Shown: piece by piece, positions 26,865 through 55,095 of the stretch | How the letters are laid out: each line of letters begins with the position of its first letter | Position numbering within the stretch: the first letter of the stretch is position 1 | Virus record (IMG/VR): IMGVR_UViG_3300037423_000584 | Origin: a virus | DNA length: 64,000 nt | Reading direction: 5' to 3' (one strand) | Notes under the pieces: model-generated | Seen by the model: the letters and a program-made list of their open reading frames with translations, nothing else | Database searches by the model: none | What the model was told of the DNA's origin: nothing | Translations under genes and position numbers: made by a program

Positions 26865-27839
26865 ATGAGTATTTTTGACAAGAGAATTGCATTCAAACCA
26901 TTTGAATATCCAGATATTATAGAATATAAAAACGCAATTAATCACAGTTACTGGTTAGTTAGTGAATGGAATTTCATTAGCGATATACAAGATTTCCATA
27001 CTAAGCTAACAGATGAAGAAAAGAACGCTGTAAAGAATACACTCCTTGCAATATCACAAATAGAGGTTTCTGTTAAAAGATTTTGGACGAAATTAGGAGA
27101 TCGTTTTCCTAAGCCAGAAATTGAACAAGTTGGTGTTACTTTTGGAGAATCTGAGGTAAGACATTCTGATGCATATTCGCATCTTCTTGAAGTATTAAAT
27201 CTTAATAATGATTTTGCTCTACTTCTAGAAAACCCAATCATTCAGGGCCGCGTAGATTATCTAACGAAATATCTAAAGGGTGCTGCTGATAATTCAAATG
27301 AAAATTATACTTTGACTTTAACATTGTTCTCCATATTCATTGAGAACGTTAGTTTGTTTAGTCAATTTGCTATCATTAAATCATTCAATAAATATAAGAA
27401 TATTTTAAAAGATATCGATAATGTTGTCCAAGCCACACAAAAAGAAGAAGTAATTCATGCTATGCTTGGTGTTTACATTATCAACAAGATTAAAGCAGAA
27501 TTCCCAGAATGGTTTAATGAAGATTTTTATGAAAAGATTTATAGAGCTTCTAAGAAAGCTTTTGAAGCTGAAAGTAATATTATTGATTGGATCTTCGAAA
27601 AAGGCGAACTTTCATTCCTATCAAAGAACACGTTGAAGGAATTTATTAAAGACAGATTTAATTTAAGTATTGAGATGATTGGTGGAAAGAAGTTGTTCGA
27701 AGTCAATCAAGAAGAAATCGCAAAGCTTAAGTGGTTTAATGATGAAATTTATGCAGAAGTTAATACTGATTTCTTCCACAAGAGACCAGTAACTTACAGT
27801 AAAAAAATGCAATCAGTAACAGCCGATGATTTGTTCTAA
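26865..27839 (+). CDS. nrdB: ribonucleotide reductase class I small subunit (class Id-like)
   Basis: KPFEYP, QIEVSVK, ESEVRHSDAY, IENVSLFSQF, EEVIH and DFF..RP..Y. Confidence 0.93.
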   Translation: MSIFDKRIAFKPFEYPDIIEYKNAINHSYWLVSEWNFISDIQDFHTKLTDEEKNAVKNTLLAISQIEVSVKRFWTKLGDRFPKPEIEQVGVTFGESEVRHSDAYSHLLEVLNLNNDFALLLENPIIQGRVDYLTKYLKGAADNSNENYTLTLTLFSIFIENVSLFSQFAIIKSFNKYKNILKDIDNVVQATQKEEVIHAMLGVYIINKIKAEFPEWFNEDFYEKIYRASKKAFEAESNIIDWIFEKGELSFLSKNTLKEFIKDRFNLSIEMIGGKKLFEVNQEEIAKLKWFNDEIYAEVNTDFFHKRPVTYSKKMQSVTADDLF

Positions 27840-27855
27840 ATCAGAAAGATAAAAT

Positions 27856-29499
27856 ATGAGTTATAGATGGTTAAACGAATTATCACAACAATTTCTAGAA
27901 AAGGATTATCTATTGCCGGGACAAACTCTTGATGAAAGAGTTGATGCAATAGTTAATAACGCAGAGAAGATTCTTAAGATCGATGGTTTCGCAAAGAAAT
28001 TCAAAGAGAATATGCAGAAGGGTTGGTATTCATTATCAACTCCTGTTTGGGCTAACTTTGGAACAAATCGTGGTCTTCCGATCTCTTGTTATGGATCATA
28101 TGTAGATGATACAATGCATTCCATTCTGTATACACAAGCAGAAGTTGGAATGATGACAAAGATCGGAGGCGGGACTTCTGCGTACTTTGGCTCTGTCAGA
28201 CCACGCGGAAGTCCAATCTCCGTTGGAGGCGAAAGTGCCGGTTCTGTACACTTCATGAGACTTTTCGATACTCAAATTGATATCGTAAGTCAAGGAAGTC
28301 TACGTCGTGGTTCATTTGCTGGTTATCTTGATATTGATCATGGAGATATTGAGGAATTTCTTAATATTAAGAGCGAAGGAAATCCAATTCAACATCTGTT
28401 TTTCGGAGTATGTATCTCTGACAAATGGATGCAAGAGATGATCGACGGAGACAAGAATAAGCGTCGGATCTGGGCAAAGGTAATTCAGTCTAGGATCAAT
28501 ACTGGTCTTCCGTATGTGTTGTTTATCGATAATTTTAATAAGTATACTGCTGATGTGTACAAGGACAAGAAACTAAAGATCTTTTCTAGCAATCTTTGTA
28601 CCGAAATCGCACTTCCATCAAATGATCTTGAATCATTCGTATGTTGCTTGGCTTCTATGAATGATCTGTATTTTGATGAATGGAAGAATACAGATGCAGT
28701 GGAATTGCTGACTTATTTCTTAGATGCAGTAATGACAGAGTTTATCGAGAAGGCACGAAAGATTCCATTTATGGATCGTGCTGTAAGATTTGCCGAACGT
28801 CATCGTGCGATTGGTATTGGTCAACTTGGATGGCATAGTTATCTCCAAAGCAAGATGATTCCATTCGAAAGCATGGAAGCAAAGTTTGCCGCAGGAGATA
28901 TCGCTAAGACAATTAAGAACCAATCTTATAAAGCTTCTGCCAAACTTGCAGAAATGTTTGGTGAGCCAGAAGTTCTAAAGGGCTATGGCCGTAGAAATAC
29001 AACTACTATTGCTATTGCACCAACAAAATCTTCTGCATTCATTCTTGGACAAGTATCAGAAGGAATTGAGCCTCATAGATCTAATTATTACATCAAGGAT
29101 CTAGCAAAGGGTAAGTTTACTATCAAGAATCATGAACTTGAGAGTCTTCTGATCTCTAAGAATAAGAACGACGATAGCACTTGGGAATCTATTCTACGAA
29201 AGGGCGGAAGCGTACAACATCTAGATTTTCTTACAGATAAGGAAAAGGATGTATTTAAGACATTCTCTGAGCTTTCGCAGAAGGAAATTGTTATTCAAGC
29301 TTCTATTCGTCAGAAATATATTGATCAGGCTCAGTCGTTGAATCTTATGATTCACTCTTCTGTTCCTGCTAAGGACATTAGTGCTTTGATGATAGATGCT
29401 TGGAAGATGGGTGTTAAGTCGCTTTATTATCAAATTGGTGTAAATGCGGCTCAAAACTTTACTAGATCTATTCTTGTATGTCGTTCCTGCGAGGCATGA
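27856..29499 (+). CDS. nrdA: ribonucleotide reductase class I large subunit (short, no ATP cone)
   Basis: PISC, SQG..RRG, SNLCTEI, IAPT.SS, QAQSLN, LYY and a C-terminal CxxC. Confidence 0.95.
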   Translation: MSYRWLNELSQQFLEKDYLLPGQTLDERVDAIVNNAEKILKIDGFAKKFKENMQKGWYSLSTPVWANFGTNRGLPISCYGSYVDDTMHSILYTQAEVGMMTKIGGGTSAYFGSVRPRGSPISVGGESAGSVHFMRLFDTQIDIVSQGSLRRGSFAGYLDIDHGDIEEFLNIKSEGNPIQHLFFGVCISDKWMQEMIDGDKNKRRIWAKVIQSRINTGLPYVLFIDNFNKYTADVYKDKKLKIFSSNLCTEIALPSNDLESFVCCLASMNDLYFDEWKNTDAVELLTYFLDAVMTEFIEKARKIPFMDRAVRFAERHRAIGIGQLGWHSYLQSKMIPFESMEAKFAAGDIAKTIKNQSYKASAKLAEMFGEPEVLKGYGRRNTTTIAIAPTKSSAFILGQVSEGIEPHRSNYYIKDLAKGKFTIKNHELESLLISKNKNDDSTWESILRKGGSVQHLDFLTDKEKDVFKTFSELSQKEIVIQASIRQKYIDQAQSLNLMIHSSVPAKDISALMIDAWKMGVKSLYYQIGVNAAQNFTRSILVCRSCEA

Positions 29500-41615: not shown

Positions 41616-42671
41616 ATGGCCGACGATACCGCAGAATTTTATAGTATATCAGCAGAACAGTTATTCGAAGAAACGGCAAAGAGAGATATCATTACATGTT
41701 CATTAGCAACAGACATAGCTCTTGGTGGTGGTATTCCTCTTGGTTGTACTGTTCTTATTGGTGGTAAAGCAAAGCTAGGTAAAACAACTATATCTTTGCA
41801 ATTTGGTGCAAATGCACAAAACAAGTATGGAAGTAAGATCTTCTATTTTAATATAGAAGGACGTCTAAGTAAGCTAGTTCTCAGTCAGATTCAGGGTATT
41901 AAGTTAGACAAAGATCATTTCGAGGTCGTAATGCCTCCGGTTATTACCGATAAGAAAGGTAATGTAATTGGATATAAAAAGGTAGGATCTAATTACTGGT
42001 GGGCAAAGATTGGTCAAGTTATATCAGAGAATCCTAAGTCTGTTGTTATTGTAGATTCAATTGCTGCTCTATCTTCCGAAAAGGAAGTTTCAGAAGGTAT
42101 GGGATATCAAGGTCGTGGCGATGGACAGAAGCTAGAAGCTCAGTTCTGTCGTAAGTATGGAGATATCATTGTACCAAATAGAGTAACAGTATTCCTACTA
42201 ACACATATTCAGGCAAATACATCTGGATATGGTCCTCCTGTACAGATTAAAGCAGGTAACGCTGTTAAACATACCGCAGATATTATTCTATTCGGTAAAA
42301 CCGCAGAGAAGTGGAAAGAACAAGATGGTCGTATCTTGGGACATGATATGATTTATAATGTAGAGTGTAGTGCTCTTGGTCCTCCTCATACAGAAATGAG
42401 AGTTCCTCTACGCTACGGAACAGGTATAGACGTTATTAAAGATATAATAACACAATGTATTAATTGGGAAATAATTAAAAAAGCAGGAGCTTGGTATACT
42501 ATTCCATTTACAGAAAAAGACGGAAAAATAGAATTTATAGAACAATCTGATGATAAAGAGATAAAATTACTTAAATTCCAAGGTGAAGATAATATTAGAA
42601 ATTGGTTATTAATAAGACCGAATGAAACAAAAATTTTAGAAGATATTATTAGAAAAAAGATATTTGGATAA
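41616..42671 (+). CDS. recA: RecA/UvsX recombinase
   Basis: DIALGGGIP.G, GKAKLGKTT, IE, IVDSIAAL, GNAVKH and KAGAWY. Confidence 0.9.
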   Translation: MADDTAEFYSISAEQLFEETAKRDIITCSLATDIALGGGIPLGCTVLIGGKAKLGKTTISLQFGANAQNKYGSKIFYFNIEGRLSKLVLSQIQGIKLDKDHFEVVMPPVITDKKGNVIGYKKVGSNYWWAKIGQVISENPKSVVIVDSIAALSSEKEVSEGMGYQGRGDGQKLEAQFCRKYGDIIVPNRVTVFLLTHIQANTSGYGPPVQIKAGNAVKHTADIILFGKTAEKWKEQDGRILGHDMIYNVECSALGPPHTEMRVPLRYGTGIDVIKDIITQCINWEIIKKAGAWYTIPFTEKDGKIEFIEQSDDKEIKLLKFQGEDNIRNWLLIRPNETKILEDIIRKKIFG

Positions 42672-45700: not shown

Positions 45701-47203
45701 ATGAAGGAATTAAAACAACTTAGAGATGCTGGTTCAGAACGTGCATTACTTGCTACAATTGTAAGAAATGGCAAGAATGCATTAATAGATGCAGATGGCA
45801 TTATAGATGCTACAGATTTTTCCCTTCCTATAAATAGAGCAATTTATTCTGCACTAATTCATTTAGCAGAAGATCCAAATTGCGAACGATTTGACATAGA
45901 ATCTATTAAGATGAAGATCAAGAACCTTGGTTTTGGAGATGTTATTTCCTCAACCAAGGAACTTGAATATTTAGATCTTTTAGACTCTGTTAGCGTAGAT
46001 GCAAGCAATATTCCAATGTTTGCTATACAAATTAAGAAGTATTCTATAGTTAGAGATCTATATAGACGTTATACCGATGCTGCTAATTATCTACAGAACA
46101 TATCTGGAAATGAAACTCTTTCAGATATTATTAAAGAAGCAGAAGGAAAGATTATAGATTTTGTTACTGGAATCGAAGGTTCCGGTGCTTTGCAACAGCT
46201 TACAGGAGATTTGCTATCATACATCGATCACGTAATCCAATCGGAAGAAGTAGATCAGGTTGGTCTTCCAACAGGATTTCCAATTTACGACGAAGCAATT
46301 GGTGGTGGGCCACGCAGAGGCACCGTAACAATGAAGGGTGCAAGACCAAAGACGGGAAAAAGTTTCGATGCTCTGAACACGGGATTGAATGTTGCGAAGA
46401 AAAAGATTCCAGTCCTTTATTTGGATACAGAGCTAACCGCAAGTTATCAGAAGAACAGAATGGTTTGCATTAATTCTGGTTGTCCTATTTGGAAGTTTGA
46501 GACTGGTAAGTTTAAGCACGAGAAGGACTTAGTAAAGAAAGTAATAGATGCTGGCAAAGAACTTGAGAATACTCCATTCTATTATGAATCTATTTCTGGA
46601 ATGAGTCATACAGAAGCTTTAGCTCTTGTAAGACGTTGGTTAGTAAAACACGTAGGATTTAATTCCGAAGGTAAAGCAAACGATTGTTTAATCATCTATG
46701 ATTACATGAAGCTAACCAGCGGAGCAAGTCTTACAAAAGTAACACCCGAATACATCGTACTAGGTTTGATGTTGACCGAAATGCATAATTTCGCTGTTAA
46801 ATACGATGTTCCTATTCTTGGATATGTTCAGTTGAATAGAGATGGAATCGATGCAGAAGATACAAGCGTTATCGCTGGATCTGACAGAATTTTATGGCTC
46901 TGTTCTTCAATGAGTATCTTTAAGAATAAAGATGAAACCGATGTTGATCTTGGATGTGGATGGGATAAAGGTAATAAAAAGCTTCTTGTGCTAGAAACCA
47001 GACATGGTAGTGGATTAGATGGTCATAATAATTACATCAATCTTCATGCATCGCTCAAACCCATGGTAGCCAGAGAAGAAGCATGTGGATTGATTAGAGA
47101 AGGTTTTACATATAGTCAAGTAGCGGTTAAGAACAATGTTAGCAACAACCAGCAAAAGAATCAGCCAAGAAACCCTGAATCAAATAACGGAAGCAGCCAA
47201 TGA
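45701..47203 (+). CDS. dnaB: DnaB-like replicative helicase
   Basis: SERALL N-domain, GLPTGF, GARPKTGKS, DTE, YDY, QLNR and RHG. Confidence 0.9.
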   Translation: MKELKQLRDAGSERALLATIVRNGKNALIDADGIIDATDFSLPINRAIYSALIHLAEDPNCERFDIESIKMKIKNLGFGDVISSTKELEYLDLLDSVSVDASNIPMFAIQIKKYSIVRDLYRRYTDAANYLQNISGNETLSDIIKEAEGKIIDFVTGIEGSGALQQLTGDLLSYIDHVIQSEEVDQVGLPTGFPIYDEAIGGGPRRGTVTMKGARPKTGKSFDALNTGLNVAKKKIPVLYLDTELTASYQKNRMVCINSGCPIWKFETGKFKHEKDLVKKVIDAGKELENTPFYYESISGMSHTEALALVRRWLVKHVGFNSEGKANDCLIIYDYMKLTSGASLTKVTPEYIVLGLMLTEMHNFAVKYDVPILGYVQLNRDGIDAEDTSVIAGSDRILWLCSSMSIFKNKDETDVDLGCGWDKGNKKLLVLETRHGSGLDGHNNYINLHASLKPMVAREEACGLIREGFTYSQVAVKNNVSNNQQKNQPRNPESNNGSSQ

Positions 47204-48287
47204 ACGTATTGAATTTATTTTAGAACAACTTGGATTTGATGTAAATAGTTTTTATGGATCAGGTGGTGAACTTAGGTGTCGCTGCCTTATTCATTCTGGT
47301 GATAATAATACAGCATTCTCATACAGTACAGTATTTAAAAAGTGGCGTTGTTACACAAACTCATGTCATGATGGATGTGATAACATATTTGGTCTAGTAC
47401 AAAAAGCTCTGTCATTACAAAATGATAAAGAAATAGGTTTTCGTGATGCTGTATCATGGCTGGCAAAGATACTTGAGATTAAAATTGATCTAAATAGTAA
47501 TATAGAGATATCAGAAGATACTAAAGAAATTAGTAAATTAGTATCTTATTCTAAATATAAGACAAAACAAGTAAATAAACAAAACACAGAATTCAAGCAA
47601 TTTCCTCTATCTGCAATAAAAGATAAAGTAGAACCAAGTTGGTATTTTATAAATCAAGGATTTTCACCAGAAATTCTTAAGAAATACTGTGTCGGATACT
47701 GTGAAGATCCATATAAACCAATGAATCTTAGATCATATGCACCGGTTCTAGACGATACTGGCACAATGGTTATAGGAGTTACTGGTAGAATTAAATTTGA
47801 AAAATGTGAATTATGTGGAGATTTCCATAATCCAGATGATCTATGTCCTTCTGATGATAGAATGACACGTTCTTATTCCAAATGGATGCATTATGGATTT
47901 AGCAAAAGTACAGTATTGTATAACAGTTGGTTTGCAGAAGAGCATATTAAAAGAACAAAAGTAGCCATATTAACAGAAGGTCCAAAAGAAATATGGTGGC
48001 TAGAGCAATATGGAGTACATAACGCGGTATGTATATTTGGATTAAGCTTTTCAAACATCCATTTGAAAAAGTTAATCAAAATGGGAGTAACTACTATTGT
48101 TGTCGCACTAGATAATGATGAAAAGGGACTTAAAGCCATAGACGATATATACGATAATTTTGGTAACTATTTCAAAATAGTAAATATCAAAAATATCTTA
48201 GGACCGGATCAAGATATTGATGATCTAAAAGAAGATGAGATGAATAATAAATTAATACCATTTTTAAAATCATTGGAGAAGAATTAA
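47136..48287 (+). CDS. dnaG: DnaG-type primase (Zn-binding domain + TOPRIM)
   Basis: C.IH.GDN...C....C, GR, LYN, TEG and ALDNDEKG; extra CELC..H....C insert. Confidence 0.88.
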   Translation: MLATTSKRISQETLNQITEAANERIEFILEQLGFDVNSFYGSGGELRCRCLIHSGDNNTAFSYSTVFKKWRCYTNSCHDGCDNIFGLVQKALSLQNDKEIGFRDAVSWLAKILEIKIDLNSNIEISEDTKEISKLVSYSKYKTKQVNKQNTEFKQFPLSAIKDKVEPSWYFINQGFSPEILKKYCVGYCEDPYKPMNLRSYAPVLDDTGTMVIGVTGRIKFEKCELCGDFHNPDDLCPSDDRMTRSYSKWMHYGFSKSTVLYNSWFAEEHIKRTKVAILTEGPKEIWWLEQYGVHNAVCIFGLSFSNIHLKKLIKMGVTTIVVALDNDEKGLKAIDDIYDNFGNYFKIVNIKNILGPDQDIDDLKEDEMNNKLIPFLKSLEKN

Positions 48288-49080: not shown

Positions 49081-49977
49081 TTGGAAATAGAAACAATTAA
49101 TTCATCGTCGTACAATTTGTACGACTGGTGCGAGTTCAAATTCTTCTTGCAAAACATATTAGGTTTTGAAGATGAAGCTGGACCGGCCGCTGTACTGGGT
49201 CATATATTTCATAAAGTATGTGAAATATTGACCAGAGCATCGGTTTTGAAACACGATAAGAATAGTAAGATATGGGACCATAATTATTTATGGAAGATAT
49301 CTTATAATCACTACGCTAATGAAAAGCCACACCTTATTGGAAAGATTCAGCCTGCAAAACTAAAGAGGGTTAAAAAAGCACTAGATGAACTAATCGTCAG
49401 TGCTTATAGCCCAATAAGAGACAATAGTATCAATTCTGAAATAAAGTTTAGAAACTTAGAAATAAAAGATCCTGCATTTGCAATCAAACGAAGAGAAGAT
49501 GGTACTATAAAGTATTATAGTTTATTCGGAACAATAGATAGAATTGATAAGATTAACGAAGATACTATTGAAATTGTAGATTACAAGACAGGAAGTAGTT
49601 CATTCAACTCTAAAGATGGATCAAAGAAAACCCCATCTAAGCTTCACGAAGACATACAACCTTCTATATATTTCTTAGCTGCTAGAGAACTGTTTCCTTG
49701 GGCTAAGAACTTTATAATTACATTTATCTATATAGTAGATGGTGGACCAATTAGCGTTCCATTCTGCGAAGATGATGTAGAACATATAAAAGACAAGCTT
49801 AGGAAACGATATAAGACTATCAAAGCAAACGAAGATCCTCAGAGGGATCGAAGCTGGAAGTGCAAGGTTCTTTGTAATCTTGGCAAAAGCGGTGTTTGTG
49901 ATGATGTTTGGCGTGAAAAGAATGAAAACGGTTATCAGTTTACAATAAATAAATATAAGATATTACATGGTAAATAG
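49081..49977 (+). CDS. Cas4/RecB-like PD-(D/E)XK exonuclease with a probable Fe-S cluster
   Basis: S.S..C, G.IFH, GTIDRID, VDYKTG, Q..IY and a C-terminal C...C......C. Confidence 0.85.
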   Translation: MEIETINSSSYNLYDWCEFKFFLQNILGFEDEAGPAAVLGHIFHKVCEILTRASVLKHDKNSKIWDHNYLWKISYNHYANEKPHLIGKIQPAKLKRVKKALDELIVSAYSPIRDNSINSEIKFRNLEIKDPAFAIKRREDGTIKYYSLFGTIDRIDKINEDTIEIVDYKTGSSSFNSKDGSKKTPSKLHEDIQPSIYFLAARELFPWAKNFIITFIYIVDGGPISVPFCEDDVEHIKDKLRKRYKTIKANEDPQRDRSWKCKVLCNLGKSGVCDDVWREKNENGYQFTINKYKILHGK

Positions 49978-50196: not shown

Positions 50197-50445
50197 ATGC
50201 TGGATTTATATAAAATCTTCGAAGAAGTTGGATGTAAAATAATATCTACTAATCCAAAACCCAAAACATCTATAGATTTTATATGCAGATGTGGCAAAAA
50301 TGGGAAAATATATTACAAATATAATACAAAAATAATAGAATGTAATACATGCAGAAGCACGAGGGCTAGAAAAAATGATAAATACAATAAAAAGGAATTT
50401 GAACAATGGTTAATTCAACAGAACGTAAAGTTCAGGAAGGAGTAA
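50197..50445 (+). CDS. small Zn-ribbon protein (resembles DNA-binding repeats of homing endonucleases)
   Basis: F...GC, ICRCG ... CNTC. Confidence 0.5.
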   Translation: MLDLYKIFEEVGCKIISTNPKPKTSIDFICRCGKNGKIYYKYNTKIIECNTCRSTRARKNDKYNKKEFEQWLIQQNVKFRKE

Positions 50446-50453
50446 ACAAGGCA

Positions 50454-52579
50454 GTGGACAATAATTATATTATTTTCCACTGTCATTAGTTTACTCTGTT
50501 TATAGTCTACTCGATGGTTTTTCAAGTCCTAAGAAGAACGCAGAAAGAGCAAAGAAGCTAGGTATGACCGCTCTTGGTATTTCTGATCACGGAAATATCG
50601 GCGGTCATATTGAACATTGGTCAGAATGTAAGAAAGCAAAGATTAAGCCAATCCTTGGTTGTGAATTATATATTCCATCTCAATGTGCTGCTATTAAAAG
50701 TTCAGACAATCGTCATAATAATCACATGGTTGTTTGGGCGAAGAATAAGCAAGGTTGGTATGATCTAGTTAAACTTGTAAGCAGGACTAATGATCCAGAA
50801 TATTTCTATTATAAACCTCGCATTAGTTTGTTTAATACAGAAATAGAAGGGAAAATGCATGAAGGTTTAGAGTCTTTCTTGACCGGAAACATCATGGGTT
50901 TTTCTGGCCACCAAGGAAGTATTCTTGCAGATAGCCTATTTTGTGATCTTTTTGGTGACAATAAGAAGCGTTCAGAAGATATTAAGAAGGCTTATGGTCA
51001 GTATAAGAATAAGGATATTGAATTCTATAAGCAATTCTTAAAGCCAAACTGGCTAGAATCTACATCAGAATTAGCTTTAAAGCTTCAAAAGATGTTCGGT
51101 AAGGATAACTTCTTCATTGAGCTACAAGATGAATTAAATCCTAATGATAAGCTAGCCCTGTGGATTCATCCTTTGATCGTATCTTGTTTAAGACAGGTTT
51201 CAAAGGCCACTGGTATTCCTGCAATGACCTCATCAGATCCGCATTATGCAAATCCAGAGGATGCGGACGATCAACGTATCATGGTTTCTGTTAATATGAA
51301 AGAAACCGAAGAGAGTATTCAAAGAAAGCTTTCTGACGATCAAGAAAGCGATATCATGGTATTCTTTGGTTCTAATAACTTCTATATTCATAGCTATGAT
51401 GAAATCAAAGATAAGTTTACTCAAGAAGAATTAGAAATGACCAATAAGGTCGCCGCCATGGTTGAGGAATATGATATTAGTGCCAAACCAAGTATTCCTA
51501 AGTTTGATATCCCTAATCTTCCTGATCTTCCATTCCTAAGAAAAATAGAAAACCCTTCTGATAAGTATCTTATGTATCTATGTGTAGAAGGTGCTAAGAA
51601 GTTTGAACCTTGGACAAAGAGTGATAAATATAAGCGTGAAGACTATTGGAATAGACTCAATGAGGAATTTAAGGTCATTATAGAAGCAGGATTGTCTGAT
51701 TATTTCTTGATTGTTTGGGATTTTTGCATGGCTGCTGATAATAGACCAGCAGATCATTCATTCGATTGGCGTAAGAATCTAGAATTAGGCGGTAAAACAG
51801 ATCCAATTCCTCGCGGAGTAGGAAGAGGTTCTGCTGCTGGATGTCTTATTTCTTATCTTGTTTCGATTACAGGAATTGATCCTATTCTTTATAATCTTAT
51901 TTTCTCTCGCTTTTATAACAAGGGTAGAAATACAGCAGATCACATTGAGTTGCCAGATATCGATTCTGACTTTGCAGTAGAAGATAGAGAGTGGATTATT
52001 AAGTATATTGAAAATAAGTATGGTCAAGAAAATGTGGCACAGATTATTACATTCCAAAGAATGCAAGGTCGTGCTGCTATTAAGGATGTTTTTAGAGTAA
52101 AGGGTATTAAGGGCGGTTTTGAACTCTCTAATGAAATATGTAAGTATATTCCAAATGAAGCAGAAGTTGCTGATGAATTACAGGAAATTAGAGATTCTGG
52201 CCATCCTGATTATGGATTGATTAAATATTCTATTGATAATTCTGATGAAATTCAAAAGTTCATTAAGGATGAAAAGATTAAAGGCGTCTTAGATCAAGCA
52301 ATACGATGCGAGGGTGTCAAGAGAGGTCAAGGTCGTCACCCATCTGGAATCATAGTAACACCAAAGCCTGTAAAGGACCATTTTCCAATGGTTTATGATA
52401 CTAGATCAAAGCAAAAAATCATTGGTGTCGATATGAATAATGCCGCCAAGTTGGGTGGAGTAAAAATTGACCTACTAGGCACAGCGATATTAGATAAATT
52501 AAAAATGACACAAGATCTAGTAAATAAGGTAAAGCCTCGACGTAATAGAGTCGATCATTACCAAGAGGAAATAGAATAA
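50454..52579 (+). CDS. dnaE: DNA polymerase III alpha, N-terminal part (PHP + palm); 5' end interrupted by an 8-nt insert
   Basis: GTG-DNNYIIFHCH [TAGTTTAC] SVYSLLDG...SDHG, KPILGCE, GRGSAAG, PDIDSDF, HPSG and KIDLLG; the track ORF starts at 50564. Confidence 0.88.
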
Positions 52580-52581
52580 CT

Positions 52582-54237
52582 ATGTATGATACAACAGAAT
52601 CAATAGAAATGCTTCTTAATGAGAAGCATCCAATTAATAGGCTTAAATCAGATACAGAACTTTATAAAGTACCAGAATCTGGAAACTATAACTTTAAAGA
52701 TACACCACTAAACGATCCTAGAGTATGGAGATTGTTCGCTAAAGGGAATACTAGGGGGGTCTTCCAATTAGAAAAACAACTAGGACAAGATTGGTCTAGA
52801 AAGTGTCGTCCAGAAAATATAGAACATCTTGCGGCTCTTGTGTCGATTCTACGTCCAGGTCCATTAGAATCTGGATTCGCTGAGTCTTATTGTAAGAGAA
52901 AGAATGGCCAAGAAGAAATAGTATATCTACATTATTCTCTTGAACCTATTCTTAAAGACACATTCGGTTGTTTAATCTACCAAGAACAAGCAATGCGTAT
53001 TGCTGTTGATATTGCTGGTTTTAACGAAGTACAAGCTGATAACCTAAGAAAAGCAATTGGTAAAAAGAAACCAGAGGAAATGGTTAAAGTCAAGAAGATG
53101 TTTCTTGAAGGTGCCAAGGACAAAAAGCTAGTTAATGAGAAAGAAGCAGAAGAGATCTTCGGTTGGATTGAGAAGTCTGTTAGATATTCGTTTAATAAGT
53201 CTCACGCTGTTTCTTATGCAATGATCGCATATCTTTCAGCTTATCAAAAGACACACTTTCCAACAGAATTCTATTGCTCTTGGCTTACCTATTCTGATTG
53301 GAAGCCTAATCCAAAGGAAGAGATTTACGAATTAGTTCAAAATGCTCGTCTAGATGGTATTAAGGTTAATCCACCAGATATCAGAAGAAAGAATATTGAT
53401 TTCGAAATCATTGGAGAAAAAGAGATAGCTTTCGGTCTGTCTCACATTAGAGGCGTTGGTGCTTCTGCTATTGAGAATATTAGTAATATTAAAAATATAG
53501 ATACATTTGTTGGTTTCCTTAAGTCAGTTAAAAAACTAAAGAGAAATGTTGCTGAAAGCTTAATCAAATCTGGTGCATGTGATTGCTATGGCATGAGTAG
53601 AGCGATGATGCTTCAAAGAATATATGTTATCTTTGGAAGAAATGAGAAAGACACAGAGAATCAAGCACCAGAAGTAAAGTCATTAACACCAAATGAATAT
53701 GAATATGTAATGTCTAAGATTGATAAGCAAACTATTCAAGAATGCTTACAAGGTGTTATTGATAATAAAGTATGTGTTAAAAAACGTATCCCAACTATTG
53801 AATCTAAGATTACTTATATTAATAAGGTTCAAGCTGATACTAATAAGATTAAGTCAATTTGGGAAAAGCTCTACTTAGGTCTTAATTTAACTTGTTCCGC
53901 TGCTGATGACGTAAGTAAGATGGAAAACAATATTACTTCTTGCAGAGATGCTCATAAAAAGAACCATAAAGACAAAGTAACTATGCATGTAGTTATTGAT
54001 GATATTCGTCTTAGAAAGACCTCTGAGAAGGCTAAAAATCCCGGACAAGAATTTGCTTATTTAAATATTAGTGACAATAGTGGTGCTTTGCAAAACGTCG
54101 TATGCTGGCCTGAAACTTGGGACAAGGCTAAAAACGATGGTTTAACACAAGATTGTGTTGTCTGTTTATATGGATATAAAGATTGTTACAATGGTCGTGA
54201 ACAAGTAGTAGCAAGCGATATAGTGGTAATTGGCTAG
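52582..54237 (+). CDS. dnaE: DNA polymerase III alpha, C-terminal part (fingers/HhH/OB)
   Basis: GVFQLE, RPGP, IYQEQ, ADNLRKAIGKKK, YSFNKSHAVSY, PPDI and FGLSHIRGVG. Confidence 0.92.
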   Translation: MYDTTESIEMLLNEKHPINRLKSDTELYKVPESGNYNFKDTPLNDPRVWRLFAKGNTRGVFQLEKQLGQDWSRKCRPENIEHLAALVSILRPGPLESGFAESYCKRKNGQEEIVYLHYSLEPILKDTFGCLIYQEQAMRIAVDIAGFNEVQADNLRKAIGKKKPEEMVKVKKMFLEGAKDKKLVNEKEAEEIFGWIEKSVRYSFNKSHAVSYAMIAYLSAYQKTHFPTEFYCSWLTYSDWKPNPKEEIYELVQNARLDGIKVNPPDIRRKNIDFEIIGEKEIAFGLSHIRGVGASAIENISNIKNIDTFVGFLKSVKKLKRNVAESLIKSGACDCYGMSRAMMLQRIYVIFGRNEKDTENQAPEVKSLTPNEYEYVMSKIDKQTIQECLQGVIDNKVCVKKRIPTIESKITYINKVQADTNKIKSIWEKLYLGLNLTCSAADDVSKMENNITSCRDAHKKNHKDKVTMHVVIDDIRLRKTSEKAKNPGQEFAYLNISDNSGALQNVVCWPETWDKAKNDGLTQDCVVCLYGYKDCYNGREQVVASDIVVIG

Positions 54238-54247
54238 GAAATAATAA

Positions 54248-54643
54248 ATGATTATAGCTATTGATTTTGATGGTACAATTGTAGAACATAATTATCCAGA
54301 TATAGGTCGTCCTGTTATTGGTGCTATAGAATACATAAAACAATTCCAAAATCTTGGTGCCAAAATTATTCTATGGACTATGAGAAGCGATAATGACGAT
54401 GGACCAACTTTAAGTTCTGCTGTTAATTATTGCTTAAGCAAGGGAATAGAATTATATGGTATAAATAGCAATCCAACTCAAAACGAATGGACGTCTTCTC
54501 CAAAAGCATATGCTAATATTTATATCGATGATGCTGCCATAGGATGTCCATTAAGAGAATCGGCAAGCTATGGAGCTAGGCCATATGTTGATTGGGATAT
54601 TGTTGGTCCAATGGTTATAAAACTACTAAAGGGAAATAAATGA
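54248..54643 (+). CDS. capless HAD-family phosphatase
   Basis: IAIDFDGTI, LWT.R, K.YA.IYIDD. Confidence 0.85.
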   Translation: MIIAIDFDGTIVEHNYPDIGRPVIGAIEYIKQFQNLGAKIILWTMRSDNDDGPTLSSAVNYCLSKGIELYGINSNPTQNEWTSSPKAYANIYIDDAAIGCPLRESASYGARPYVDWDIVGPMVIKLLKGNK

Positions 54644-55095
54644 TAAAATTCGTCGATGGCAATTTATTTGATTACAAAGGTGATATTTTAATAAATACGG
54701 TCAATGTAGTTGGTGTAATGGGCAAAGGAATAGCTTTGGAGTTTAAAAAGCGATTTCCTGCAATGTTCAGAGATTATAAAGAACAATGTCTAAATAAAGA
54801 ACTAGAATCGGGCCATATTTATCCTTGGCACCATAATACAGGATTGATAATTAATTTTGCTACAAAAGATCATTGGAAAGATCCATCTAAATATGAATGG
54901 ATAGAATCTGGTCTAAAAGAGCTTAAAAATTATTTAGATAATTTAGATTTTACTTGTACTGTATTAATACCTGCACTCGGTTGTTCGAATGGTGGTTTAG
55001 ATTTTGATATAGTTAAAGTGATGATAAACAAATATCTGAGTGATTCTAAACAAAATATTATAGTATTTAATCCAAATACAGAAAGGCAAAAATGA
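54640..55095 (+). CDS. macrodomain (DarG/TARG1-like ADP-ribosylhydrolase)
   Basis: GNLF, NTVN.VGVMGKGIALEFK, INF.TK.HW and PALGC.NGGL. Confidence 0.88.
   Translation: MIKFVDGNLFDYKGDILINTVNVVGVMGKGIALEFKKRFPAMFRDYKEQCLNKELESGHIYPWHHNTGLIINFATKDHWKDPSKYEWIESGLKELKNYLDNLDFTCTVLIPALGCSNGGLDFDIVKVMINKYLSDSKQNIIVFNPNTERQK

Follow-up and report, generated by a model that had tools for sequence, protein, structure and literature searches.

A conserved 7-8-nucleotide, stop-containing gap in phage dnaE genes as a candidate short ribosomal stop-hop

How is the N-terminus of a replicative DNA polymerase made when its first codons are cut off from the rest of the gene by a stop codon and a change of reading frame? 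This question is raised by the dnaE gene of the virus record IMGVR_UViG_3300037423_000584, of which a stretch of 64,000 nucleotides (nt), hereafter the window, was analysed. Reading from the GTG at 50454, a first open reading frame (ORF1) encodes VDNNYIIFHCH and ends at a TAG (50487-50489); this stop is followed by TTTAC (50490-50494) and then by the TCT at 50495, which opens SVYSLLDG in the frame of a 671-codon ORF (50564..52579). The dnaE frame itself contains a TAA at 50462 and has no ATG, GTG or TTG ahead of the ATG at 50564, and a Shine-Dalgarno-like AGGAAGGAG at 50434-50442 (+ strand) places GGAG 11 nt ahead of the GTG. All these positions, first given in a preliminary description of the locus, were reproduced here, and the features that we discuss are collected in Table 1.

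When the dnaE frame was translated from 50495 (ORF2), it matched the Pfam families PF02811 (PHP, 1.6e-30) and PF07733 (7.4e-64). Residue 1 of this frame aligns with position 6 of the PHP profile, so that the frame lacks the first PHP strand with its HxH metal ligands; in alignments with DnaE chains from the PDB, query residue 2-3 corresponds to chain residue 13-19. The missing part was found in ORF1. A protein search returned several hundred DnaE relatives, the closest 70 of which are 44-68% identical, and intact relatives begin for example with MSYSLFHCHSYMSLLDG or with ...NNYTIFHCHSSFSLLDG (the latter in P0026). Since these intact relatives are homologous to the window on both sides of the break, the 11-codon frame is the true N-terminus of the protein and exactly 8 nt are extra. 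The earlier claim that deleting exactly these 8 nt restores the PHP motif was therefore correct, relatives such as P0026 being contiguous across the break.

Table 1. Positions in the window of the dnaE break, its hairpin and the adjoining genes
Feature	Position	Strand	Remarks
Upstream ORF, 82 amino acids, internally deleted HNH-like nuclease remnant	50197..50445	+	Stop 5 nt ahead of the hairpin
Window-specific outer helix	50439..50497	+	50439-47 pairs with 50489-97; extends the hairpin
Conserved 5' hairpin	50450..50484	+	5' arm 50450-58, including the GTG; inner stem 50460-65/50469-74; 3' arm 50476-84
ORF1, DnaE N-terminus with HxH metal ligands	50454..50486	+	11 codons, V/M-DNNYIIFHCH; homologous to the N-termini of intact relatives
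Putative take-off codon CAT (His11)	50484..50486	+	Last sense codon ahead of the stop
8-nt coding gap TAGTTTAC	50487..50494	+	TAG 50487-89 would be in the A site at take-off; TAC 50492-94, putative landing triplet
ORF2, body of the DnaE N-terminal subunit, PHP and DNA polymerase III alpha core	50495..52579	+	Would resume at TCT (Ser)
Separate gene, C-terminal part of DnaE (fingers, HhH)	52582..54237	+	PF17657 4.2e-48, PF14579 2.9e-15

The window is not alone in carrying such a gap. Nine other independent metagenomic lineages (L001, L004, L022/L023, L024, L025/L026, L027, L028, L029 and L030), with DnaE proteins 53-66% identical to that of the window and taken from assemblies of NCBI, Logan, JGI and ENA, show an interruption of 7 or 8 nt at this motif, so that ten insert-bearing lineages could be compared. 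The gap is 8 nt long in three of them (window, TAGTTTAC; L001, TAGTTTAT; L004, TAGTTAAC) and 7 nt long in the other seven (L022, TGAGTAT; L024, TAGGTAT; L025, TAGCTAC; L027, TAGTTAC; L028, TAGTTTG; L029, TAGTCAC; L030, TAGGCAA). In every lineage, a stop codon (TAG in nine, TGA in one) directly follows the last sense codon of the first frame, here called the take-off codon, and deletion of the gap yields the canonical HxH-S-x-x-S-x-L-D-G motif and spacing. The take-off codon is the second His of HCH in eight lineages; it is a Ser codon located one codon further 3' in L028 and a Tyr codon located three codons further 3' in L029 (HAHSFY / STLDG). The protein segment just 3' of the gap is conserved among the relatives, and in the five lineages that were read closely (window, L001, L004, L022 and L024), the dnaE frame offers no canonical start codon up to and including the resume codon.

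These relatives also bear on an assembly or sequencing artefact in the window contig, which had nothing in its favour beyond being possible a priori and which we consider exceedingly unlikely: same-motif gaps stand in nine independent NCBI, JGI, ENA and Logan assemblies, their sequences differ and their hairpins (see below) co-vary. Judging from these sequences, the break in the window is real and not an assembly error, because the same motif is interrupted in all these other assemblies. The preliminary description had instead argued against an error from the position of the insert within a pairing arm; the outer helix in question turned out not to be general, and it is the relatives that make the argument.

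As for where ORF1 begins, GGAG is found 7-11 nt ahead of an in-frame GTG in eight of the ten insert-bearing lineages, while the purine-rich sites of L028 and L029 are weaker and spaced differently and an upstream ATG is the likelier start in L029. From this conservation across relatives, we infer that GTG 50454 is the probable start of ORF1 in the window. An in-frame ATG at 50406, with AAGGAA 8 nt ahead of it, would give a 27-codon ORF1 overlapping the end of the upstream ORF; this ATG derives from a conserved Trp codon of that upstream ORF and may be incidental.

In public annotations, these dnaE genes are truncated or mis-extended (451, 654 and 674 amino acids, chimeric N-termini). The window's own call, P0013, is 451 amino acids long; P0011 and P0054 start at downstream codons, and P0018, P0041, P0044 and P0057 have chimeric N-termini translated in the wrong frame. 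Such wrong-frame N-termini (e.g. FFTAI- or FTVTS-) are usable as protein-level flags for further cases, and N-terminal motifs are missing or odd in P0009, P0012, P0016, P0050, P0068 and P0083, the last of which belongs to a more distant clade of about 40% identity. Given these odd N-termini, the gap element may be more widespread than the ten lineages. A DNA search of INPHARED returned no related phage genome and a single-protein query of IMG/VR no related loci; an alignment-based query found 5 viral and 10 metagenome related loci, every one with an intact dnaE. Three candidates (L002, L003 and L021) that came from scans of viral and genome collections for the take-off/gap pattern were rejected as chance matches in unrelated genes.

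The other end of the gap varies with the take-off codon. With the anticodons that we take the take-off tRNAs to have (GUG for His, GUA for Tyr and CGA for Ser UCG), the last triplet of the gap can pair fully, by Watson-Crick pairs and one G:U, with the take-off tRNA in seven of the ten lineages, where no triplet closer to the take-off codon on its 3' side has this property. The three other landing triplets (AAC, CAC and CAA) can pair at two of three positions. His CAY is matched with TAY in six lineages, with AAC in one and with CAA in one; Ser TCG is matched with TTG in L028 and Tyr TAT with CAC in L029. Fully pairable triplets make up 10.5% at other offsets, which gives a P of ~1e-5 for seven in ten when the lineages are treated as independent.

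A third conserved element lies directly ahead of the gap. When 48 nt upstream plus the take-off codon were folded, one hairpin was found in each of the ten insert-bearing lineages (minimum free energy (MFE) -17 to -28.5 kcal/mol, z-scores -4.0 to -7.5; -17.2 and -5.3 in the window), and the same region was without a hairpin in all eight intact relatives (z-scores -0.8 to +1.2). The 3' arm of this hairpin ends between nt -1 and +2 of the take-off codon in all ten lineages, at its nt 1 in the window. This includes L028 and L029, where the arm is made of different codons because it follows the displaced take-off site. The 5' arm contains the in-frame GTG, which pairs with the first His codon. Covariation was assessed on the seven ungapped HCH-type sequences: 91.4% of the cells are paired, compared with 81.8 +/- 2.0% in 500 shuffles (none of which reaches the real value), both sides have changed in 6 of the 15 hairpin pairs, and pairing is only 38-56% when the partner is slid by 1-3 columns. 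A covariance model built from these seven sequences finds L001, a sequence that was not used to build it, with 28.9 bits and L028 with a weak score; it has no match in the intact loci and no other match in the 64-kilobase window. Aligning the dnaE 5' ends of related phages, as the preliminary description had proposed, hence revealed both the insert in nine other lineages and a hairpin with compensatory changes.

The long hairpin (50439-50497) that had first been described is indeed part of the MFE fold of the window (-29.3 for the region -62..+24), but only the inner stem is conserved and co-varying; pairing similar to that of the outer helix was found in L024 and is variable or absent elsewhere. 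Neither a conserved 3' hairpin nor an A-site stem-loop was found in the insert-bearing lineages (z-scores +1.3 to -2.2, with differing folds), no terminator-like site was found at the hairpin, and no Rfam family reached the threshold at the locus.

In principle, such a hairpin could be a recognition element for the removal of the 7-8 nt from the RNA, by a micro-intron or by editing, ahead of translation, which would restore the motif too. The folds speak against it: none of them places the two gap ends side by side and no bulge-helix-bulge was found. In addition, the in-frame stop at the start of the gap and the near-cognate triplet at its end are translational features that would be meaningless for splicing, and we know of no intron class as small as 7-8 nt. 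With gap ends that stay apart and no Rfam family, removal at the RNA level, including the micro-intron that had initially been offered as an alternative, appears very unlikely to us.

The hairpin also buries the start codon of ORF1, as in translational attenuators, which fits a scenario where the two frames are never joined: ORF1 would then be a leader peptide or upstream ORF, and a DnaE without HxH would be made from a downstream or non-canonical start, unless the gene is simply decaying. Gene callers do find downstream starts (P0011, P0054), and the DnaE of E. coli has a degenerate PHP site. However, the ORF1 peptide is homologous to DnaE N-termini right up to the stop in lineages that are only 53-66% identical, and the ~23 codons from the resume codon to the first canonical start are conserved as protein although they contain no start codon. 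If the gene were a pseudogene, ten lineages of an essential replicase would not have preserved the hairpin, the landing triplet and the two frames alike. We consequently see little chance that the frames stay separate and are highly confident that recoding at the dnaE gap is required and selected.

As for how the gap is crossed, the conserved arrangement points to a programmed short ribosomal stop-hop, a translational bypass of 8 nt in the window, as the probable mechanism. Ribosomes would start at GTG 50454, or possibly at ATG 50406, and, from the GTG, would translate 11 codons until the peptidyl-tRNA-His is located on CAU 50484-86 with UAG in the A site. There, a fraction of the ribosomes would release the codon-anticodon pairing instead of terminating and slide by 8 nt; the tRNA would re-pair with UAC 50492-94 (G36:U wobble) and decoding would resume at UCU 50495, giving ...IIFHCH-SVYSLLDG... 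with an intact PHP metal-binding motif. The junction peptide of the hop product would be ...FHCH-SVYSLLDGFSSPK, its tryptic peptide ending in ...IIFHCHSVYSLLDGFSSPK. At take-off, the hairpin would have been melted by the ribosome, with its loop and 5' arm outside and its 3' arm still in the mRNA channel, next to the P-site codon on its 5' side. We infer that the hairpin, by refolding where the mRNA leaves the ribosome, draws the mRNA forward and prevents back-sliding. A common rule would hold for all lineages: a stop in the A site, a slide of 7-8 nt, re-pairing at the first near-cognate triplet and decoding of the next codon. A hop of the His-tRNA from CAU, during a pause at the UAG, to UAC 50492-94 with a restart at UCU had already been suggested in the preliminary description, and it fits the pattern of stop, gap, landing triplet and motif across the ten lineages.

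The phylogeny of the insert helps to weigh this hop against conventional frameshifting. On a maximum-likelihood tree of 67 DnaE N-subunits, calculated with the N-terminal columns excluded, the insert state requires at least 8 changes. Insert-bearing proteins stand beside intact ones (P0041 with P0031, support 99; P0024 with P0040, support 96), and the sisters P0048 and P0054 (support 100) differ in gap length, their loci L022 and L004 having 7 and 8 nt, respectively. Frameshifting would have to go +1 at the stop where the gap is 7 nt long but -1 or +2 where it is 8 nt long, and it would leave 2-3 extra residues between HxH and Ser. It is compatible with a dnaE frame that is open across the gap and for several codons upstream, and with the one-residue variation in loop length that is seen in the intact relatives P0047, P0060 and P0020. 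Nevertheless, reading the window and its relatives at and around the conserved sequence disclosed no slippery heptamer or re-pairing option, and the residues that would be added (EY, RY, SY, SL, SH, RQ or LVY) are not conserved although they would lie inside a metal-binding motif. HxH would be lost if a -1 shift occurred ahead of the His codons, yet it is conserved in frame up to the stop. Moreover, a single clade would have to employ two mechanisms, and so would the sister pair L022 and L004: because these sisters differ in gap length, a single kind of frameshift cannot account for both, while one hop rule covers 7- and 8-nt gaps. Taken together, we regard frameshifting as improbable.

Several points nonetheless weigh against a stop-hop. 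A stop codon followed by U is a good termination context in E. coli, and U follows the stop in six of the ten lineages. The take-off and landing codons are never identical (0/10) but near-cognate only, and the lineages are related, so that the statistics given above overstate their independence. An A-site stem-loop would not fit into so short a gap and no conserved 3' hairpin was found, because of which the efficiency of the bypass could be low. Only 11-13 residues would have been made at take-off, without a nascent-peptide signal, and no alignment to the KKYK signal was made. Finally, since the hairpin buries the likely GTG start, it may control initiation as well as, or instead of, bypassing.

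A literature search found no paper describing bypassing in dnaE. The closest counterpart is the bypass of T4 gene 60 and of its homologues in myovirus topoisomerase genes, where the gap is 50 nt long (10.1101/2022.08.31.505936; 10.1101/2024.12.09.627546) and where a 5' stem-loop on the exit side has been proposed to drive bypassing (bioRxiv 10.1101/2024.12.09.627546), a model that the geometry of the dnaE hairpin fits. In both cases one protein is encoded in two frames split by a non-coding gap, a UAG directly follows the take-off codon, and the P-site peptidyl-tRNA is presumed to be kept and to re-pair at a landing triplet adjoining the resume codon. Both have a 5' stem-loop that is impossible while the ribosome is on the site and that can form again once the mRNA emerges, with 25 nt from the 5' side of the loop to take-off in the window and 26 nt in gene 60, and both concern an essential phage gene of DNA metabolism with homing-nuclease genes nearby, although the link with nuclease cassettes is only partial in the dnaE loci. 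The differences are substantial too: unlike gene 60, the dnaE gap is 7-8 nt long and has no A-site or extended stem-loop, its landing codon is near-cognate whereas take-off and landing codons are identical in gene 60, and its hairpin abuts the take-off codon instead of standing 9 nt upstream. There can be no long nascent-peptide signal either, because take-off would occur at codon 11-13. The gene is also a different one, with the break in the dnaE PHP motif; the two cases were set apart by gene and gap length, not by direct sequence comparison.

Shorter gaps have been described elsewhere. The terminase gene of the Streptomyces phage phiHau3 contains 10-nt inserts that are candidates for regulatory bypassing, with a junction peptide detected in E. 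coli for a UAA variant (PMC10732093). Like the dnaE gaps, these are short frame-disrupting blocks in an essential phage gene whose flanks are contiguous in relatives, with a slowly decoded A-site codon at take-off and local RNA structure around the site. In contrast to the stop of dnaE, their A-site codon is the rare sense codon UUA, tied to Streptomyces bldA; the inserts are 10 nt long, internal to the gene and found in a handful of genomes, and no co-varying hairpin abutting the take-off site was reported there. Synthetic stop-hops in E. coli (Weiss et al. 1987) have been reviewed with the remark that no natural in-frame stop-hop is known (PMC5009743). In these constructs, a peptidyl-tRNA leaves a stop-adjacent codon and re-pairs a few nt downstream, as it would here, and elaborate signals are not needed. 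They are artificial and in-frame, however, 9 nt being read as one amino acid, whereas the dnaE hop would be natural, conserved and frame-changing, with a dedicated hairpin. Their efficiency is reportedly low, at ~1%. The mitochondrial byps of Magnusiomyces capitatus, short inserts that are bypassed with restoration of the frame (PMC5009743), resemble the dnaE gaps in that a match between take-off and landing in two of three positions is allowed. Unlike the single dnaE site with its specific hairpin and bacterial-type translation, they are mobile inserts of 27-55 nt found at many sites and described as context-independent, and they need an unused A-site codon and relaxed mitochondrial decoding.

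Regarding the history of the element, the identity of its region between lineages (62%) is no higher than that of the gene body (61-64%), so that a recent horizontal spread of the element region was unsupported. As we see it from these sequences, the elements would be old and kept by selection, with repeated loss or gain.

Nuclease-like genes stand upstream of dnaE at several of these loci. In BLASTP, the 82-amino-acid upstream ORF of the window matches residues 26-62 and 168-216 of a 216-amino-acid protein of L025, and the middle part, with the HNH core, is missing. Members of this HNH-like family are whole in L025, L027 and L005, the last of which has an intact dnaE, and Pfam HNH matches for the family are weak and sub-threshold. 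An HNH-like ORF or remnant is located upstream of dnaE in the window, L025, L027 and L029, where the copy is apparently split by a frameshift (462-767 / 740-994), and L004 has a LAGLIDADG-like remnant (1-321); no nuclease-like gene was found upstream of dnaE in the five other insert-bearing loci. A faint NUMOD3 match was seen in L022 (4248-4959). Nuclease-like genes also precede the intact dnaE of L005, L017 and L018; in the upstream ORFs of L017 and L018, HNH-like motifs were recognised by eye only, and Pfam finds nothing for L017. The dnaE region looks like a homing-nuclease hotspot. A protective effect of the gap against a homing nuclease, by analogy with T4 mobA, would be plausible.

The DnaE of the window is encoded by two adjacent genes (PHP and core; fingers and HhH) with 2 nt between the stop of the first and the ATG of the second, a two-gene layout that is also found in relatives, where the genes often overlap slightly. 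At this gene junction (52579/52582), the window showed no intein motifs; some relatives (P0022, P0032 and P0033) carry intein or LAGLIDADG domains. Across the window (1-64000), the + strand carries almost every ORF, tightly packed and in the standard code. A module for replication and nucleotide metabolism includes a DnaB-like helicase (45701-47203), a Toprim protein (47136-48287), a PD-(D/E)XK nuclease (49081-49977), a UvsX-like recombinase (41616-42671), a macro-domain protein (54640-55095), a dCMP deaminase and the small and large subunits of a ribonucleotide reductase (26865-29499). A second break was suspected in the latter genes and dismissed, 26865-27839 and 27856-29499 being the small and the large subunit. 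No tRNA genes were found in the window.

To our knowledge, T4 gene 60 and its homologues are the only well-characterised cases of efficient programmed bypassing, and good examples of short natural bypasses are scarce. Short natural counterparts of gene 60 have 'long been presumed' (PMC5009743). The dnaE genes described here would provide a family of 7-8-nt stop-hops that affect an essential replicase and whose gap length, take-off codon and landing triplet vary naturally. They would make a compact system for testing whether mRNA refolding on the exit side drives the sliding, how much anticodon pairing is needed for landing and whether bypassing can proceed without a nascent-peptide signal. Only with great reserve do we mention two bolder readings, namely that the 7-8 nt are cut from the mRNA by a hairpin-guided cut-and-rejoin reaction, as a true phage micro-intron, or else that the exit-side hairpin alone suffices for efficient bypassing; if the hairpin were the sole and sufficient driver, this would be a minimal natural bypass element. 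For annotation, mis-called dnaE genes hide the metal-binding motif of a probable proofreading PHP domain. For the phages themselves, the gap has been kept in ten lineages although a simple deletion would remove it, and it could serve to control the dosage of the polymerase or to protect the gene against homing nucleases.

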